64,000 nt of DNA, taken from a virus. Under the pieces are notes generated by a model, which was not told the origin of the DNA, searched no databases, and saw only the letters and a list, made by a program, of their open reading frames with translations. Positions within the stretch are counted from its first letter, which is position 1. Each line of letters starts with the position of its first letter. The stretch spans positions 1 through 64,000 of IMG/VR virus record IMGVR_UViG_3300046779_001269; one strand, written 5' to 3'. Positions 41,762 through 48,623 of the stretch are shown piece by piece. A program made the position numbers and the translations under genes.

Positions 41762-41838
41762 TGGTTGCAGTGGCTGGACTCGCACCAACGACCTCCGAGG
41801 GTATGAACCTGGTGAGATAGCTTCTTCTCTACACTGCT
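41762..41838 (-). tRNA. tRNA-Met(CAT), initiator-like
   Basis: CAT anticodon, 1:72 mismatch, CCA; atypical T-loop TGCGAGT. Confidence 0.7.
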
Positions 41839-41843
41839 ACAAA

Positions 41844-41908
41844 TGGAGCGGGAAACAAGATTCTCACTTGTATATTGGGTGGACCCCAACATTGTTAAAA
41901 ACTCCCGC
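41844..41908 (-). ncRNA. D-armless tRNA-Gly-like RNA
   Basis: GCGGGAG/TTCCCGC-TCCA acceptor, TCC-containing hairpin, T-like arm, no D stem. Confidence 0.55.
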
Positions 41909-42014
41909 ATATACTCTATATAGAAACACACTAACCGTTATACAAAGCCTTCTGTATAACACGGAGGAATAAATTCCTGCTTATCCGTTAAACTGTCATT
42001 AATGTGTTTTTATA

Positions 42015-42088
42015 TGGAGCGGGATAAGAGAATCGAACTCTTAACCGAAGATTGGAAATCTGCTGTTTTACCATTAAACTAATCCCGC
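42015..42088 (-). tRNA. tRNA-Gly(TCC)
   Basis: Cloverleaf with CCA. Confidence 0.9.
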
Positions 42089-42092
42089 ATAT

Positions 42093-42962
42093 TGGCGCAC
42101 TGAGATTACATGCTGCCCATTGACACCTCATTCATTATAGTAAGCCTTGCGAGCCTACCTTCGCATGATATCCACCACAACTGTATTGCTACATATTGCA
42201 GTCTGTCAACAACATCGCCGTTTTGAAAGTCAGGCACTAGACTTGTCGCCATAAACTACTCTACGCTTTCTACCCCGTTGACCTTGCGAGCCATTCACAG
42301 TCGCTAAACCGTTACGAAACTTCTTGCATAAACTATCGTCACCTTGCGAGCTTCAATAGACTTGATTGTGTTACCACTCAAGTATTAGATGTTTTTCATC
42401 TATGACCGTGTCAGTCTTTGCGTTTTATTGTTAGAAGGAGTCGAACCTTCAGTCTATTTCTTGAAATGAAATTGGCCTACCATTAGCCTATAACTGAACC
42501 TACTGCGATGTGCTGACACAGTTGCTGCATACTCTTTTGGAATACACAATACAACACACCACGTACCTTTTGTCTTGCGAACTACTCAGTCGTCTTTCAC
42601 GATTAGTGTGACCCCGCCGATTTCTCGACAGCCCCAGTAACCATTCAAACTGCATACGAGCCCTTGACTGCAACATCTCGGACAAATACGCTACCCTTTC
42701 TCATACTGACTGGCAAGTTAGTGTTGTTGTGAGACTCAGCACCACCTGTTAGTTCTCTGTCTGCCTGTCTTACCCTCACGGGAACATAAACAGACATTCT
42801 TTCCACAACTCTTGCTTCCTCATTACATCCACCCGTCTTATAAGTGAACGACACCTCACGGTGTTGAGCAGGCTTGTTTAGATAGACTATTTCTAGCGGA
42901 GTTATGTAGGCATACCTCCTTTGGGTGACTCACGCCACTTATCTTAATGATGCTAAACCACC
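42093..42962 (-). ncRNA. large structured ncRNA, GOLLD-like (~870 nt)
   Basis: No credible ORF, own promoter, three CTCGCAAGG GNRA-type hairpin loops, embedded tRNA-like arm set, located inside a tRNA array. Confidence 0.6.
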
Positions 42963-42984
42963 ATTTGTTTTTCAACATGTATGT

Positions 42985-43038
42985 ATTGTATCAGAACCGA
43001 AGTGTCTTGTCAACACTTATTGTGGTATATTTACAACA
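42985..43038 (-). promoter_or_regulatory. sigma70 promoter plus near-palindrome, driving the large ncRNA
   Basis: TTGACA (43008-43013), 17 bp, TACAAT (42985-42990); TGTGG-N8-CAACA at 43021-43038. Confidence 0.75.
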
Positions 43039-43078
43039 CACACATAAAATTTTTATTTGTAGAGTTAATACAAAAATC

Positions 43079-43152
43079 TGGTGCCCCTAGAGAGAATCGA
43101 ACTCCCGTCCTCGGATTACAAAACCGATGTTCTACCATTTAACTACAGGGGC
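43079..43152 (-). tRNA. tRNA-Thr(TGT)
   Basis: Cloverleaf with CCA. Confidence 0.9.
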
Positions 43153-43157
43153 AAATT

Positions 43158-43231
43158 TGGAGCGGGTAGCGAGAATCGAACTCGCAAATAAACCTTGGCA
43201 AGGTTTCAGGTTACCTTTACATCATACCCGC
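43158..43231 (-). tRNA. tRNA-Gly(GCC)
   Basis: Cloverleaf with CCA. Confidence 0.88.
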
Positions 43232-43240
43232 AATTTGTTT

Positions 43241-43269
43241 ATTATATATGCTTTACAATCACTTGTCAA
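43241..43269 (-). promoter_or_regulatory. sigma70 promoter
   Basis: TTGACA, 17 bp, TATAAT. Confidence 0.75.
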
Positions 43270-43290
43270 GCACTCCTAGAAAATATTTTT

Positions 43291-43376
43291 TGGTGCGGGT
43301 AGCCGGACTCGAACCAGCACGCCATAAGGCGGGAGATTTTAAGTCTCCTGTGTACTACCAATTTCACCATACCCGC
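43291..43376 (-). tRNA. tRNA-Leu(TAA)
   Basis: Cloverleaf with long variable arm and CCA. Confidence 0.9.
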
Positions 43377-43379
43377 ACA

Positions 43380-43952
43380 TTACATTGTTGGTCCGTTTCC
43401 GTTTTTGAAACCGACTTCACCACCTTCATCTTTGATTCGTTTGATAACATCTTCAAAAAGAATAGGACGAAAATCTGTTTGTTCAACGCAAACACAATGA
43501 TATCTCACATCAACCTTAGAATTTTTAACACCTGTCATCACACGACCAGTATGAAGGTGACCGTGAATGTTAGTACCAAAACGACCAAGACTGGCTTCGT
43601 GAATTGGAATATGTGAAAGAATCATTCCGTTCATTACATGATATGCACGAAGTTCACGGAAGTGTTCTCTATATTCTTCATCACGGAAGATATCATGGTT
43701 ACCACGAATAAGAACCTTATCGCCGTTAAGTCTATGCATAATGCTAAGTGCTTTACGGTTGATAACTACATCACCAAGGTGATATACTTTATCATTTGGT
43801 CTTACTGTTTCGTTCCAACGCTTTACCATTTCCTCATCCATTTCAGCAGGATCAGTCCATGGTCTAATCTTTTGACCTGTGGTCGAATCGGTGAACCTAC
43901 ACACACCAGCATGGCCAAAGTGTGTATCACTTACAAGAAATACTGCTGGCAT
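43380..43952 (-). CDS. calcineurin-like metallophosphoesterase
   Basis: SDTHFGH, HLGD, GNHD, SH, HGHLH. Confidence 0.9.
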   Translation of the reverse strand: MPAVFLVSDTHFGHAGVCRFTDSTTGQKIRPWTDPAEMDEEMVKRWNETVRPNDKVYHLGDVVINRKALSIMHRLNGDKVLIRGNHDIFRDEEYREHFRELRAYHVMNGMILSHIPIHEASLGRFGTNIHGHLHTGRVMTGVKNSKVDVRYHCVCVEQTDFRPILFEDVIKRIKDEGGEVGFKNGNGPTM

Positions 43953-43968
43953 AATGTCTCCTAAAAAA

Positions 43969-44043
43969 TGGTCCGGCGTGCAGGAATCGAACCCACATTA
44001 AAAGGGTAGAAGCCTTCTGTATTATCCATTATACTAACGCCAG
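43969..44043 (-). tRNA. tRNA-Arg(TCT)
   Basis: Cloverleaf with CCA. Confidence 0.9.
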
Positions 44044-44049
44044 AATGTT

Positions 44050-44126
44050 TGGTGCCCTAGGAGGGACTCGAACCCTCAGAACCTGGTTTCTAAGACCAGT
44101 ACGTATACCAATTCCGTCACCAGGGC
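44050..44126 (-). tRNA. tRNA-Leu(TAG), short variable loop
   Basis: Cloverleaf with CCA, no long variable arm. Confidence 0.85.
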
Positions 44127-44298
44127 AAAAAATAAATAATCTTATGTCAGAATTCAAATCAGCAGAACCTAATCTTTGGCGATATGCCGCAACTCAACCG
44201 TATAAAGATACTAAATCTTTTTCGTGTGAGAAGGATTTTACACTTTCCTTTCCAAAAAGGCAAGTGGTTCCGTTTGAACGAACTGAAATAAAACAACT

Positions 44299-44372
44299 TG
44301 GTGCTCCAAGAAAGAATCGAACTTTCATTTAATCCTTACCATGGATTTGTTCTGCCATTAAACTATAGGAGC
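44299..44372 (-). tRNA. tRNA-Thr(GGT)
   Basis: Cloverleaf with CCA. Confidence 0.88.
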
Positions 44373-44376
44373 AAAG

Positions 44377-44451
44377 TGGTGGGTCATCAGAGAATCAAAC
44401 TCTGTTCTTCCGGTTAAGAGCCGGTTGCTTCATCACTTAAGCTTATAACCC
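44377..44451 (-). tRNA. tRNA-Lys(CTT)
   Basis: Cloverleaf with CCA; T-loop TTTGATT. Confidence 0.82.
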
Positions 44452-44566
44452 ATATAGAAACACACTGTACCTCTGCCGTGATTACGCCGATATCTAACGC
44501 ATCTGCGGACAACATATGATTACTTTTCTAGAATTTTCATCTTTTCAGATATAATGTGTTTTTATA

Positions 44567-44643
44567 TGGTACCCAAGGTGGGATTCGAGCCCACAAAAAC
44601 ATGTGTTTGAGACATGCACGTTTACCTATTTCGTCACTTGGGC
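44567..44643 (-). tRNA. tRNA-Leu(CAA), short variable loop
   Basis: Cloverleaf with CCA, no long variable arm. Confidence 0.8.
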
Positions 44644-44646
44644 ATT

Positions 44647-44722
44647 TGGTGCAACCTACAGGAATCGAACCTGTTTCAACGGCTCTTCAGACCGCCGCTA
44701 TGACCACATCAGCTAAAGTTGC
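44647..44722 (-). tRNA. tRNA-Phe(GAA)
   Basis: Cloverleaf with CCA. Confidence 0.88.
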
Positions 44723-44930
44723 ATATTGAATTTGTAAGTTGTGCCACCATCGTTATTGACACCATTCACCCAAGTATATAAAGCCGGCTGGGACTCGGTA
44801 CGTTATTACAGTTACTCATCCAACGTGTCTATATTTTGTACAGAGGTTTTGCGCCTCCCGTTGTTTACCTCCTCTTTGGCTGGCCAGCTACTTGAATCGG
44901 TGACTTTCACTTACTAACACTTACAAAAAT

Positions 44931-45005
44931 TGGTGCATCGTGAGAGGATTGAACTCCCGACCTTCGCCTTGTAAGGGCGCAGCTCTACCGCTGAGCTAAC
45001 GATGC
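44931..45005 (-). tRNA. tRNA-Val(TAC)
   Basis: Cloverleaf with CCA. Confidence 0.9.
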
Positions 45006-45015
45006 AAATTTACTT

Positions 45016-45090
45016 TGGGGAGACATACGAGAATCGAACTCGTGATAACGGAATCACAACCCGTGGTTTTACCACTAAACTAATGTCTCC
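45016..45090 (-). tRNA. tRNA-His(GTG)
   Basis: Cloverleaf, G-1:C73 pair, CCA. Confidence 0.9.
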
Positions 45091-45123
45091 CCAAAGCAAA
45101 CTTAATTACTTTGGGGGTCTGTA

Positions 45124-45612
45124 TTAACCTGCAATAGCTTCTTGCTCTGCCAGAATTCTTTTCAATCTGTCAGCACAGAAACTTGCAGCAGGCGCATCTG
45201 GTTTAACCATAGGTGTCATGTTACATGTACCTTTGATATAACCAATCGCTTGTTGCACAACACAAGAACTGCCGTGCATATCATCTTTGTTCAAGTCTAG
45301 GTGAACTTCAACATGATAATCTTCTAACACTTCAGCCAATGATTGGAACAATTCTGATACCTTATATACTTCTGTCATCAGACGCATAGCAGGTTTACTT
45401 TTCTTGTGGTCATAATCTAATTCACGGTCAACATAACCGAAAATTTTACAACCATGACGGCCATCAATATGAACTACGACAGCCAATGCATAATCAGCAT
45501 ACCAAACGCCGTTAACACGGATACGTTCAGAGTCAGCACCCAAATAAACTTTCGTATCTGGTCCTTGATTTGCAAGGAATTGTTTGACTTCTTGTATGTC
45601 GAAATTTCTCAT
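45124..45612 (-). CDS. YkuK/DUF458 family RNase H-like protein
   Basis: VYLGADS, RLMTEV..., EVHLDLN, KPDAPAASFCAD. Confidence 0.8.
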   Translation of the reverse strand: MRNFDIQEVKQFLANQGPDTKVYLGADSERIRVNGVWYADYALAVVVHIDGRHGCKIFGYVDRELDYDHKKSKPAMRLMTEVYKVSELFQSLAEVLEDYHVEVHLDLNKDDMHGSSCVVQQAIGYIKGTCNMTPMVKPDAPAASFCADRLKRILAEQEAIAG

Positions 45613-45634
45613 ATCAATCACCTTTCTATAAAAT

Positions 45635-45708
45635 TGGCTCCCCGCCAGGGAATCGAACCCCGTCCAAAAGTTTTGGAGACTCTTGTGCTACCGGAACACT
45701 TGCGGGAA
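45635..45708 (-). tRNA. tRNA-Trp(CCA)
   Basis: Cloverleaf with CCA. Confidence 0.88.
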
Positions 45709-45715
45709 ATAAACT

Positions 45716-45789
45716 TGGTACCTTGTACAAGAATCGAACTTGTGTCTACCGGTTATCAGCCGGGTGCTCTGCCATTGAGCTAACGAGGT
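45716..45789 (-). tRNA. tRNA-Ile(GAT)
   Basis: Cloverleaf with CCA. Confidence 0.88.
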
Positions 45790-46034
45790 AAAATGCTCTG
45801 ACATCCTGCGGCGGTAATTATACTTCTCAAGTCTTTCATCGTCATTTGACACATACAGGCATGACCCATACACATCATCGGATTACTTAACCATCACAGA
45901 AGCCTCCACCCGCTTCCCGACCAGGACCGTTATCGCATTGCTAGCGGCCTTTCGGTTTAAAGACTACCACCCGTGTATATCATTACACTTCTCATCCTGC
46001 GGGTCACAGTAGTGGTTGACGAGACCACACGTTC

Positions 46035-46109
46035 TGGAGGGCAATGAGAGAATCAAACTCCCGTTTCAAGGTTCGTAGCCTCGTGTATTATTCACTATAC
46101 GAATCGCCC
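46035..46109 (-). tRNA. tRNA-Arg(ACG)
   Basis: Cloverleaf with CCA. Confidence 0.82.
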
Positions 46110-46115
46110 ATAAAT

Positions 46116-46191
46116 TGGTGCAGCCAAAGGACTCGAACCTTTGCGGGAAACTAGTATACAGCGGACATGCCGCCTACCCCTCCATTACTGC
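46116..46191 (-). ncRNA. tRNA-like RNA: acceptor, T arm and CCA, but no canonical D/anticodon arms
   Basis: GCAGT.../...GGCTGC-ACCA; CAAAGG-TTCGAGT-CCTTTG. Confidence 0.6.
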
Positions 46192-46197
46192 ATATCT

Positions 46198-46272
46198 TGG
46201 TGGTTCAGGTGAGAATCGAACTCACACAAGGCACCGTATGAAGATGCTGCACTGCCACTATGCTACTGAACC
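46198..46272 (-). tRNA. tRNA-Met(CAT), elongator-like
   Basis: Cloverleaf with CCA. Confidence 0.82.
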
Positions 46273-46278
46273 GAAATT

Positions 46279-46353
46279 TGGTGGAGGCCGAGGAAATCGA
46301 ATCCTTCTAGACATTCTCCTTGCAAGGGAGAACCGCAGCCCACTGCTGCCCCC
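46279..46353 (-). tRNA. tRNA-Ala(TGC), atypical D arm
   Basis: G3:U70, TGC anticodon, D hairpin with 4-nt loop. Confidence 0.75.
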
Positions 46354-46402
46354 AAATAACTTACTACTTATCTCATTGTACGCCGCAAGTTAAGGCGAGA
46401 TA

Positions 46403-46478
46403 TGGTCTCCGTAGAGGGATTTGAACCCCCACTGCTTGGTCCCAAACCAAGAGCGCTACCAGGTTACGCTATACGGAG
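46403..46478 (-). tRNA. tRNA-Pro(TGG)
   Basis: Cloverleaf with CCA. Confidence 0.9.
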
Positions 46479-46483
46479 AAAAT

Positions 46484-46559
46484 TGGCTCCCTAGGTATGG
46501 ATCGAACATACGACATCCTGATTAACAGTCAGGCGCAACTACCGCTGTGCTACTAGGGA
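46484..46559 (-). tRNA. tRNA-Asn(GTT)
   Basis: Cloverleaf with CCA. Confidence 0.9.
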
Positions 46560-46644
46560 ATAAAATCTTGAAAGTTCCGATATCACCCATCGTCACTAAC
46601 AACCGTTGAGTAACCATGCATCAAAACAAGATTACTATTTGCCT

Positions 46645-46719
46645 TGGCGCCCCGTAGGGGAATCGAACCCCTGTCTTCCGATGGACAGTCGGATATAATG
46701 GCCGTTATATTAACGGGGC
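46645..46719 (-). tRNA. tRNA-Asp(GTC)
   Basis: Cloverleaf with CCA. Confidence 0.88.
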
Positions 46720-46724
46720 ATAAT

Positions 46725-46809
46725 TGGTGGAGACGGTGTGAGTCGAACACACAGTGCCAGAGGCGGCGGATTTACAGTCCACTGGGGTTACCAATTTTCC
46801 TACATCTCC
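46725..46809 (-). tRNA. tRNA-Tyr(GTA)
   Basis: Cloverleaf with long variable arm and CCA. Confidence 0.9.
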
Positions 46810-46818
46810 ATAATTGTT

Positions 46819-46893
46819 TGGTAGGTCCACAGAGAATCGAACTCTGATTTACTGGTTAAAAGCCAGTTACTTTAGCCGTTAAGTTATGAACCC
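46819..46893 (-). tRNA. tRNA-Lys(TTT)
   Basis: Cloverleaf with CCA. Confidence 0.88.
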
Positions 46894-47018
46894 ATTTACC
46901 ATTTGTTTTACTGACGCACTATTTGCTATGTTTCACCGGAGTAGCGGCCGCATTACCGTTTCTTAACATAGTTACATAAGGCTTGTACATGCTTCTGAGC
47001 TTACATCAGCAAAACAAA

Positions 47019-47093
47019 TGGTACACGATACGAGAATCGAACTCGTCTTTCCGCCTTGAAAGGGCAGCGTCCTAACCGATAGACGAATCGTGC
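47019..47093 (-). tRNA. tRNA-Glu(TTC)
   Basis: Cloverleaf with CCA. Confidence 0.9.
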
Positions 47094-47111
47094 ATTTATT
47101 AACTCTACAAA

Positions 47112-47186
47112 TTTTTAAAGAACAAGTGTGTATTGTATCACAACCACATCTTTTGTCAACCATTGTGTTGCAAAATTACAACACAA
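47112..47186 (-). promoter_or_regulatory. sigma70 promoter, palindrome and boxA-like element
   Basis: TTGACA (47154-47159), 16 bp, TGnTACAAT; TTGTGTTG-N8-CAACACAA (47163-47186); TGTTCTTTAAAAA downstream. Confidence 0.75.
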
Positions 47187-47188
47187 CT

Positions 47189-47262
47189 TGGAGTAGGTGA
47201 CAGGAATCGAACCTGTTTCCATGGGTTTGCAATCCAGTGCCTGTCCAACTGGCTCCACCTAC
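47189..47262 (-). tRNA. tRNA-Cys(GCA)
   Basis: Cloverleaf, U73, CCA. Confidence 0.88.
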
Positions 47263-47268
47263 ATTGTT

Positions 47269-47360
47269 TGGTACCAGCGGTGAGAATCGAACTCACTCAA
47301 GAACGCTAATCTGGCGCTAAAAGGTGTATAAGACCTCTCTGACTACCAAGTCTCGCTGGC
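47269..47360 (-). tRNA. atypical tRNA with TAT anticodon (nominally Ile), long variable arm, mini D loop
   Basis: GCCAGCG/CGCTGGT acceptor; GACT-TGGT-AGTC; GAGGT-CTTATAC-ACCTT; ~24-nt variable region. Confidence 0.65.
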
Positions 47361-47363
47361 ATT

Positions 47364-47451
47364 TGGCGGAGAGTATCGGATTCGAACCGATGCGCCGATT
47401 TCTCAACGACAGTTTAGCAAACTGCTGGTTTAACCACTCACCCAACTCTCC
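47364..47451 (-). tRNA. tRNA-Ser(GCT)
   Basis: Cloverleaf with long variable arm and CCA. Confidence 0.9.
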
Positions 47452-47458
47452 ATAAATT

Positions 47459-47550
47459 TGGCGGAAAGCAGAGGAGTCGAACCCCATCCCATTTCTGAGA
47501 ACCTAGTTTTCAAGGCTAGTCGCCGGACCATCCCAGCTGCATTACTTTCC
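47459..47550 (-). tRNA. tRNA-Ser(TGA), extra nucleotides before the D stem
   Basis: Cloverleaf with long variable arm, G73, CCA. Confidence 0.8.
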
Positions 47551-47684
47551 ATTAATTACCATATAGAAGCACGCTACGGAATCGAACCGCCGTGCTAGCC
47601 TGCTCCCCAAAGCGATGATACATCTTTAACCCAGAACCTCAGGAGCTACCTGATTTGTTAAAGATATACTAGCGCACTTCTATA

Positions 47685-47758
47685 TGGCACCCCCACTTGG
47701 AATCAAACCAAGACTAACAAGTTCAAAGCCTGTTGTGCTATCACTACACCATGGAGGA
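47685..47758 (-). tRNA. tRNA-Gln(TTG)
   Basis: Cloverleaf with CCA. Confidence 0.82.
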
Positions 47759-47778: not shown

Positions 47779-47851
47779 TTTTTAAAGAACAAGATGTGTA
47801 TTGTAACAGAATCAAAGAATCTGGCAACTACACTGTTGTTTTGAAACAACA
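47779..47851 (-). promoter_or_regulatory. sigma70 promoter, palindrome and boxA-like element
   Basis: TTGCCA (47822-47827), 16 bp, TGnTACAAT (47800-47805); TGTTG-N8-CAACA (47834-47851); TGTTCTTTAAAAA. Confidence 0.7.
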
Positions 47852-47854
47852 AAC

Positions 47855-47893
47855 AAAAAACCCTAGTAGATTTCTCTTACTAGGGTCTTGTGT
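47855..47893 (-). terminator. intrinsic terminator (attenuator hairpin) at the head of the tRNA array
   Basis: ACCCTAGTA-AGAGAAATC-TACTAGGGT followed by TTTTTGTTTG. Confidence 0.85.
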
Positions 47894-47918
47894 TTGGAGT
47901 CTTTTTAGAACTTTTTTA

Positions 47919-48035
47919 TTATCCGTCCCATCCTTCATCTACACAAAACCCGAGCGACCATGAGCCATTATCGGCACTATTAATTGTGCGATACTCTGGC
48001 TGCAATGTAAAGGGTTTATGGGATATGAGAGACAC
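47919..48035 (-). CDS. putative attenuator leader peptide (38 aa), not in ORF track
   Basis: GTG start, MSLISHKPFTLQPEYRTINSADNGSWSLGFCVDEGWDG, TAATAA stop; lies between promoter and terminator. Confidence 0.65.
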   Translation of the reverse strand: MSLISHKPFTLQPEYRTINSADNGSWSLGFCVDEGWDG

Positions 48036-48066
48036 TTTTTTCTTTCTAAAAATTAAATATGTTTGT

Positions 48067-48095
48067 ATTATATAGTAAACTTGGAGCCTTGGCAA
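48067..48095 (-). promoter_or_regulatory. sigma70 promoter for the leader/tRNA array
   Basis: TTGCCA, 17 bp, TATAAT. Confidence 0.75.
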
Positions 48096-48119: not shown

Positions 48120-48623
48120 TTATTTCCACCTAATTGGCTCGGAAACCACGGGTAAATTTGGATTTTTGAAGCCGTGGAAGACTTCCCACAGACATTCTTG
48201 TACAGCAAACTTGGTCAAAAGACCTGATTCACGACCATGAGCATCTATTTCCCATGGATGTTCCCAATAATCTACCTTGTCAGAATCTATGCGTTTACCT
48301 CTCCACATGGACAGGTCATCATTCGTTTCGCCACAGATTAATTGTTTGACATGCACCATTTCATGTGCAAGTGTGGAGAGTATGGTGGATGCACCTAGAC
48401 CAGGATGGACCTCAATTAGAAACTGTCGAGGTTGATTTCTTGTATTGTAACCTTCCGCACCACATGAACCATAATTTTCCAACTTAGCATCAAAACGAAC
48501 AATCGTGGTACAATTATTTCTGATTCTGGAATTTGTTATCAATTCTTTGGCGAAAAATTCGGTTGCCCGTACAATGTAAGGCTTAAAGTATTTGTCAGGA
48601 CAGTTGTAGACTTTTACTTGCAT
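48120..48623 (-). CDS. HExxH zinc metallopeptidase-like protein
   Basis: TLAHEMVHVKQ...PWEIDA. Confidence 0.8.
   Translation of the reverse strand: MQVKVYNCPDKYFKPYIVRATEFFAKELITNSRIRNNCTTIVRFDAKLENYGSCGAEGYNTRNQPRQFLIEVHPGLGASTILSTLAHEMVHVKQLICGETNDDLSMWRGKRIDSDKVDYWEHPWEIDAHGRESGLLTKFAVQECLWEVFHGFKNPNLPVVSEPIRWK

Follow-up and report, generated by a model that had tools for sequence, protein, structure and literature searches.

Ribosome-mediated transcription attenuators are best known from the amino acid leaders trpL, hisL, pheL and leuL and from the multivalent leaders thrL, ilvL (ilvGMEDA) and ivbL, which carry codon runs for one to three amino acids and precede genes for biosynthetic enzymes. 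The pheM-pheST attenuator of E. coli reads one amino acid, is chromosomal and controls a synthetase, and T-box riboswitches bind one tRNA directly without translation. As to tRNA genes themselves, the trn operon of Anabaena PCC 7120 is a 26-gene array that is normally silent, is induced by translational stress and is controlled by TrcR, a ribbon-helix-helix repressor acting at promoter repeats (PMC8421152, PMC10272220); neither attenuation nor a leader is mentioned for it in PMC8421152. In phages, the tRNA-Tyr of T5 and SP15 counters the retron-Eco7 PtuAB system, an effect credited to a strong promoter (PMC11555353), and nuclease-resistant phage tRNAs owe their property to resistant anticodon loops (PMC10264068); no leader or attenuation is mentioned in these two papers. 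Why phages carry tRNAs, either as codon compensation or to counter host tRNA depletion, has been an open question for more than 50 years (PMC10264068).

The window analysed here covers the initial 64 kb of a T4-like phage contig of 176 kb (G+C 38%), whose relatives are found mainly in freshwater metagenomes. Its family B polymerase is ~51-52% identical to cyanophage enzymes and its rubrerythrin shares 65-69% identity with proteins of Burkholderiales, the latter similarity being a hint that the host might be betaproteobacterial. On the minus strand, a dCMP deaminase gene and a gene for a 167-aa HExxH protein (48120-48623) are followed by a large tRNA array with a GOLLD RNA; the HExxH protein adjoins the tRNA array throughout the clade and has no Pfam match. 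At the head of this array lies a leader (Table 1) that we interpret, from sequence comparisons and with a probability of a little under 0.8, as a ribosome-mediated transcription attenuator that would read tRNA availability and gate the phage tRNA array.

Table 1. Features of the leader and of the tRNA array in the window
Feature	Coordinates	Strand	Remarks
Leader promoter, sigma-70-type TTGCCA-17-TATAAT	48067..48095	-	Same position in relatives
Weak SD-like AGAAAG, 6 nt 5' of GTG	48042..48047	-	Often replaced in relatives by a leaderless ATG
38-codon leader ORF, GTG start	47919..48035	-	Predicted sensing part ~codons 2-25/26 (48032-47958)
Region 1 (putative anti-antiterminator)	48012..48035	-	Core codons 6-8; pairs with region 2 and distal ORF
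Region 2 (putative antiterminator, 5' strand)	47941..47951	-	Codons 29-32
Region 3, common to antiterminator and terminator	47883..47893	-	Pairs with region 2
Intrinsic terminator hairpin 3:4 and U6 tract	47855..47885	-	-11.9 kcal/mol
Internal promoter, 16-bp spacer, extended -10	47800..47827	-	Bypasses attenuator; absent in several relatives
boxA-like motif after internal promoter	47779..47790	-	Second copy at 47123
Putatively gated tRNA array	41762..47758	-	~29 tRNAs, all 20 amino acids; further internal promoters
GOLLD RNA within array	42097..42562	-	Rfam RF02032, 194 bits
tRNA with TAT anticodon, 4-nt D loop, long variable arm	47269..47360	-	Presence tracks leader ATA codon

Recomputing the anatomy given in the original prediction reproduced its coordinates and counts. 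These include the promoter, the ORF with 31 different codons among its 38 sense codons (19 amino acids plus the start, internal Met being absent), the 24 different codons for 18 amino acids among the first 26, the 11/11 pairing with one G-U between regions 2 and 3, and an intrinsic terminator with its stem at 47885-47861 and its U6 at 47860-47855. The first tRNA gene (Gln) begins ~103 nt past the terminator. Two elements were absent from that first reading, namely region 1, which would sequester region 2, and the boxA-like motifs that follow the internal promoters. Of the helices, it had noted 2:3 and 3:4 only, and the leader is now predicted to have the full four-region layout of an attenuator. 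Folding of the complete 216-nt leader (-67.5 kcal/mol, z -6.1) yields two parts, the terminator (3:4) and a 5' domain where helix 1:2 joins codons ~1-8 to region 2 and to the distal ORF. The alternative 2:3 duplex of the window reaches -18 kcal/mol (z about -4) and, among eight strong terminators of the genome, only that of the leader has such an upstream partner (z -3.7). An Rfam search over 47855-48095 returned no match at E<=1, blastn of the leader against cultured phages gave tRNA-Gln matches only, and no direct repeats of the TrcR type were evident by eye over the -10 box in the window sequence. Metatranscriptome contigs span the leader; their strand, ends and level are not readable and they may hold DNA, and they were therefore left out of account.

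The original prediction had also pointed to other promoters 3' of the terminator, and an rrn-like promoter located there does bypass the switch. A second promoter with a 16-bp spacer is found at 47159, and an identical stretch containing the boxA-like motif follows each of the two (47790-47765 and 47123-47098, minus strand). The same motif precedes tRNA-Trp in the Xanthomonas phages X1 and BUDD. Its likeness, as we take it, to rrn boxA suggests that host Nus factors may act in antitermination of the untranslated array. Since a promoter and a boxA-like motif sit just past the terminator, the attenuator would add to a basal tRNA supply in this phage.

Within the array, default ARAGORN misses Ser(TGA) at 47463-47550, Ala(TGC) at 46279-46353 and Lys(CTT) at 44380-44451 (all minus), and its Glu call at 42425-42498 falls within GOLLD. 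Structured spacers separate several tRNAs (47554-47684, 46895-47015, 46110-46197, 44452-44566, 45790-46034 and 42563-43078, minus strand); none of them matches Rfam, and in several a long terminal helix closes the structure. Around 45500-45995, coverage by RNA contigs of relatives is deep. Elsewhere in the window, a terminator hairpin at 50622-50587 (minus) overlaps a consensus TTGACA-17-TATAAT promoter, and its counterpart in many relatives lies ~210-230 nt before a lone tRNA-Met.

Relatives of the locus were collected by using the upstream gene as an anchor together with a terminator pattern. A conserved short ORF with antiterminator/terminator pairing had been named as the feature to look for upstream of the tRNA arrays of related phages, and this is what was found: about 55 distinct leaders precede tRNA arrays in the order promoter, short ORF, helices 1:2, 2:3 and 3:4, then tRNAs. 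The feature itself is thus confirmed as real and conserved. The ORFs of the relatives have 20-43 codons and are diverged, and their stop lies 28-46 nt before the terminator stem. Among 31 representatives, 14 are leaderless, with the ATG 6 nt after the -10 box, and 15 are SD-led, with a start ~30 nt later; close relatives switch from one type to the other and keep the same frame. Of the two remaining frames, one is closed in 31/31 representatives and the other in 27/31 (a frame has a chance of ~0.13 to be open), and close pairs display 29 synonymous versus 30 non-synonymous changes in the leader ORF. Conservation of frame and start and this synonymous excess are indirect signs that the leader may be translated. 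Besides purifying selection, some residues are conserved in the clade (YR, D and W positions) and an internal promoter follows the terminator, as could be expected from an ORF that encodes a functional small protein or an arrest peptide, with a terminator that just ends upstream transcription and internal promoters that make the tRNAs. We find this explanation extremely unlikely, since the peptides encoded within this arrangement in Moby, X1, L429 and L141 are unrelated, the leader peptide has no match in Pfam or NCBIfam, and both a conserved 2:3 helix and tRNAs starting 8-22 nt past the terminator would be pointless.

The helices are conserved, too. Terminators before a lone tRNA-Met, which have no leader, served as negative control (n=18): helix 2:3 beats shuffles in 43/44 leaders versus 0/18 of these controls. 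An unfitted alignment of 2:3 has 80% of its cells paired (0/500 shuffles) and a covariation score reached by 2/500 shuffles; pairs with a two-sided change, taken alone, are not significant (reached by 88/500). In three relatives, a G-C to A-U swap in 2:3 took place while 3:4 was also kept. Region 2 pairs with the upstream region 1 (mostly codons 5-10) in 30/31 representatives, and a Trp codon is found 8-17 nt before region 2 in 24/30, at the edge of the modelled switching range. Finally, several relatives have their first tRNA 8-22 nt past the terminator, which leaves no room for a promoter, so readthrough must occur in them.

Some loci depart from this scheme. In L017, L025, L067, X1 and Moby, the leader start follows a T4-late-type TAAATA and there is no sigma-70 promoter. 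Five others (L061, L062, L391, L325 and L356) have a terminator before small tRNA sets with no separate leader and are possibly decayed attenuators. L079 has a 23-codon ORF ~150 nt before the terminator that precedes its tRNAs, and this ORF presumably resembles a PqqA precursor peptide. No such leader was seen in a T5-like or in a Phapecoctavirus tRNA array, the inspected regions of the T5-like ende, phiWec188, XaC1 and phiK7B1 have no leader-terminator unit, and those of DLP6 and Cr30 have no annotated tRNAs. A non-exhaustive scan of bacterial genomes with the terminator pattern found the leader-terminator-tRNA unit in none of the 80 loci listed.

The sensing range was delimited with a model of equilibrium folding under an imposed ribosome footprint. 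An A-site at codons 2-25 (to Trp26 if the 3' edge of the footprint is set at +9) leaves 2:3 free, whereas at codons 27-36 it blocks 2:3 and 3:4 forms. The claim that stalling at almost any earlier codon would free the antiterminator is therefore retained for codons ~2-25/26 and lost for the later ones. Sensing of all 20 amino acids is ruled out by this geometry, as region 2 contains Cys31 and Val32, and the ORF has no internal Met; in the window, these three would not be sensed and ~16-17 amino acids would be sampled. It had also been proposed that a ribosome reaching the stop masks the antiterminator. This is contradicted by the position of the stop codon, 30 nt past the start of region 2, where the footprint of the modelled ribosome no longer covers region 2. 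Termination would then rely on passage over codons 27-36, on steric hindrance or on re-forming of 1:2. Basal control at trp involves comparable timing, steric block or 1:2 re-forming. At equilibrium, naked RNA adopts 2:3 as long as region 4 is not yet transcribed (P 0.96), and 3:4 prevails once it is (0.99); since naked RNA also forms 2:3 transiently, the outcome of the switch depends on kinetics beyond the equilibrium model.

The diversity of the leader codons stands out when compared with 26-codon windows of the phage's own genes, with P values of 0.003 for at least 18 amino acids and 0.004 for at least 24 codons. It is not upheld for codons against shuffled leader DNA (p=0.24; p=0.05 for amino acids), and is convincing only across the family and not from the window alone. 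Over 27 representatives, amino-acid richness exceeds that of same-length proteome windows in 25 cases (mean z 1.9) and that of shuffled DNA with a mean z of 1.7. Trp occurs in 26, Cys in 24 and His in 25 of the 27 leaders, versus 9, 6 and 12 expected, with the proviso that leaders share ancestry and are not independent, and Trp, Tyr, His and Gln mostly occur exactly once per leader. In the window, of the 26 tRNA species of the phage, 19 are addressed by codons 2-26 under standard wobble rules (13.5 under the null, P=0.0065); as a fraction, cognate codons show no enrichment (20/25 versus 22 expected). For five leader codons, the phage lacks a standard cognate, and four of these codons belong to helix 1. 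A sensor role of the C/G-ending codons found no support, several of the C-ending ones being in helix 1 and having no standard phage cognate tRNA; RNA structure may explain those C-ending codons of helix 1.

The best evidence for sensing, drawn here from gene content, is that the leaders appear to track their cargo. Small arrays carry narrow, matching leaders. For an array of Leu, Trp, Pro, Thr and Asn tRNAs (L067), 12/16 leader codons belong to that set, and its sister L060 has neither a Trp codon nor a Trp tRNA. A Pro-Trp-Cys-Pro-Pro block precedes tRNAs Trp, Pro and Cys in L429, and in L141 a leader rich in Leu and Arg precedes Arg and Leu tRNAs, and one rich in Asn precedes Asn tRNAs. When each lineage is represented by a single locus (8 leaders), the true leader-array pairing is the best of 40,320 permutations, with the own array as best fit for only 4/8 leaders and loci chosen after inspection. 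L387 and L017 have small arrays yet broad leaders. An ATA codon in the leader and a tRNA-Ile(UAU) in the array agree at 42/47 loci (20 both, 22 neither, 5 discordant; Fisher 2e-8); on the tree, this corresponds to 7-8 changes and about 4 independent pairs (2.5 the same way, 0 opposite), which is not significant. L346 and L348 are ends of a long gene and false positives, the former included in the cargo count and the latter in the ATA test, and both only weaken the signal. Co-occurrence with leader ATA suggests that the long-arm tRNA with a TAT anticodon could decode AUA. In L077, the long-arm TAT tRNA is truncated to 32 nt and ATA is still present in the leader.

Cultured phages offer examples as well. 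In Stenotrophomonas phage Moby (MN095772), a leaderless ORF of 27 codons that lacks annotation (L543:4862-5003) is followed by an annotated terminator ~12 nt from tRNA-Trp, with a 2:3 duplex predicted at -22 kcal/mol (z -4.0). Each of the 18 codons that precede region 2 matches an amino acid of the gated block, 14/15 of which are covered (joint p ~1e-5). The leader lacks Ile, Pro and Thr, and its Lys codon, AAG, fits the gated Lys(CTT) and not the Lys(TTT) located upstream. Sixteen Stenotrophomonas phage records share the unit with at least 98.9% identity; carriers comprise the Menderavirus phages Moby, Mendera, IME-SM1 and others, and the Xanthomonas phages X1 and BUDD. In X1 (L535:9101-9285) and BUDD (L542:1466-1645), a leaderless 39-codon ORF, also without annotation, is followed by a terminator, a boxA-like motif and a GOLLD-containing array of more than 30 tRNAs. 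The X1 leader encodes 19 amino acids and is not mentioned in the X1 paper. Compared with shuffles, the 2:3 signal of X1 is weaker (z -2.0) and that of BUDD does not beat them (z -0.1).

This matching also bears on what the switch would respond to. Attenuators with an upstream ORF of the vmlR, bmrB and toiL type respond to antibiotics, and the phage leader could likewise be a general sensor of translation health, opened by any slowing of ribosomes (antibiotics, toxins of the ribosome or EF-Tu, host shut-off) and with an incidental codon mix. The switch is indeed blind to the cause of a stall, in the model any position within codons 2-25 will do for a stall, and translation antibiotics induce the Anabaena trn array (PMC8421152, PMC10272220). 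A general sensor needs neither cargo tracking nor rare codons, yet leaders track their own tRNAs in independent lineages and Trp, Cys and His are kept in most of them, which makes this explanation unlikely in our eyes. Translation of the ORF might also set a constant or stage-dependent readthrough that is not tuned to the tRNA state, for instance with leaderless ORFs behind T4-late-type promoters; indeed, late-type promoters drive the leader in some relatives and in Moby and X1, and internal promoters supply basal tRNA. We hold such a fixed-ratio or timing device to be very improbable, because cargo-matched codon panels and the fixed spacing from Trp to region 2 would be left unexplained.

For the attenuator that reads tRNA availability, we infer the following course. 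RNA polymerase would start at the 48095 promoter and a ribosome would translate the leader behind it. During normal decoding, the ribosome would pass over region 2, or leave and let 1:2 re-form; 3:4 would then form and transcription would stop before the first tRNA. If an aminoacyl-tRNA is scarce, the A-site would wait at any of codons ~2-25/26 and break 1:2, region 2 would be free to form 2:3 at the expense of the terminator base, and polymerase would read into the array. With one codon for most kinds of tRNA, the leader would work as an OR-gate over the tRNA pool, and the tRNA products would feed back on the signal. It is thus probable that the phage produces additional tRNAs only while decoding by ribosomes is slow. 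In the phage of the window, the attenuator would be a boost on top of the rrn-like internal promoters, and in relatives with tRNAs 8-22 nt past the terminator, readthrough would be the sole route to the first tRNAs. The original prediction of an attenuator with a broad codon panel is thus strongly supported by conservation, covariation and matching of leader and cargo, and is to be amended in the details of sensing range and stop.

Candidate triggers are a host anticodon nuclease, infection-driven tRNA decay, phage codon demand and starvation. Such a device cannot tell an uncharged from a missing tRNA. As extra tRNA helps little when an amino acid is lacking, tRNA loss or overload would be the more sensible trigger. 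Counter-defence against anticodon nucleases is a possible purpose. The more ambitious reading of a widespread phage module, whose cargo-matched codon panel would detect anticodon-nuclease attack or other tRNA loss within one translation round and induce replacement tRNAs, as an inducible counter-defence evolved in several lineages, is a tentative one to which we lean somewhat less than to its contrary. If it were true, the leader would list the tRNAs that the hosts of the phage deplete, and would also imply that the long-arm UAU tRNA decodes AUA. More generally, if the leader senses tRNA, phages would keep watch on the pool and produce tRNAs as needed, and what phage tRNAs are for would become testable by reporter, in cultured phages. 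Besides, the leader could serve as a compact biosensor for anticodon-nuclease activity.

To conclude, the phage leader shares with the trp/his/thr/ilv attenuators a promoter and a short ORF before the regulated genes, mutually exclusive helices 1:2, 2:3 and 3:4 with region 2 within the ORF or at its end, an intrinsic terminator with a U-tract before the first regulated gene, and control codons that fit the supply of the operon (cargo matching, with 19/26 tRNA species in the window). It differs from them by a one-of-each panel of up to 20 amino acids in place of tandem codon runs, by tRNA genes and a GOLLD RNA in place of biosynthesis or synthetase genes, and by being phage-borne and often leaderless, unlike enterobacterial amino-acid leaders. 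With the structural features present and the tandem codons and enzyme operon lacking, it is a variant rather than a member of this class. The T-box also senses uncharged tRNA through a terminator/antiterminator choice, and the leader lacks a Stem I with specifier loop and T-box bulge as far as Rfam, which gave no match over it, can tell. Like the Anabaena trn operon, the phage locus would be a stress-induced tRNA array, but the former is controlled by a repressor and the latter would be gated by an attenuator; like the T5/SP15 and the nuclease-resistant phage tRNAs, its products would refill a depleted pool. The trp/thr-type mechanism is known, and neither tRNA genes as its target nor a panel with one codon of each kind is described in the literature searched, which covered few subscription journals and held no description of an attenuator of phage tRNA genes. 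The pheM-pheST attenuator likewise adjusts the supply side of charged tRNA, whereas in the phage the tRNAs themselves would be the regulated product. Classical attenuation, with its single amino acid and its enzyme genes, would be broadened by the phage leader into a gate that has many inputs, acts on tRNA genes and is subject to direct negative feedback.
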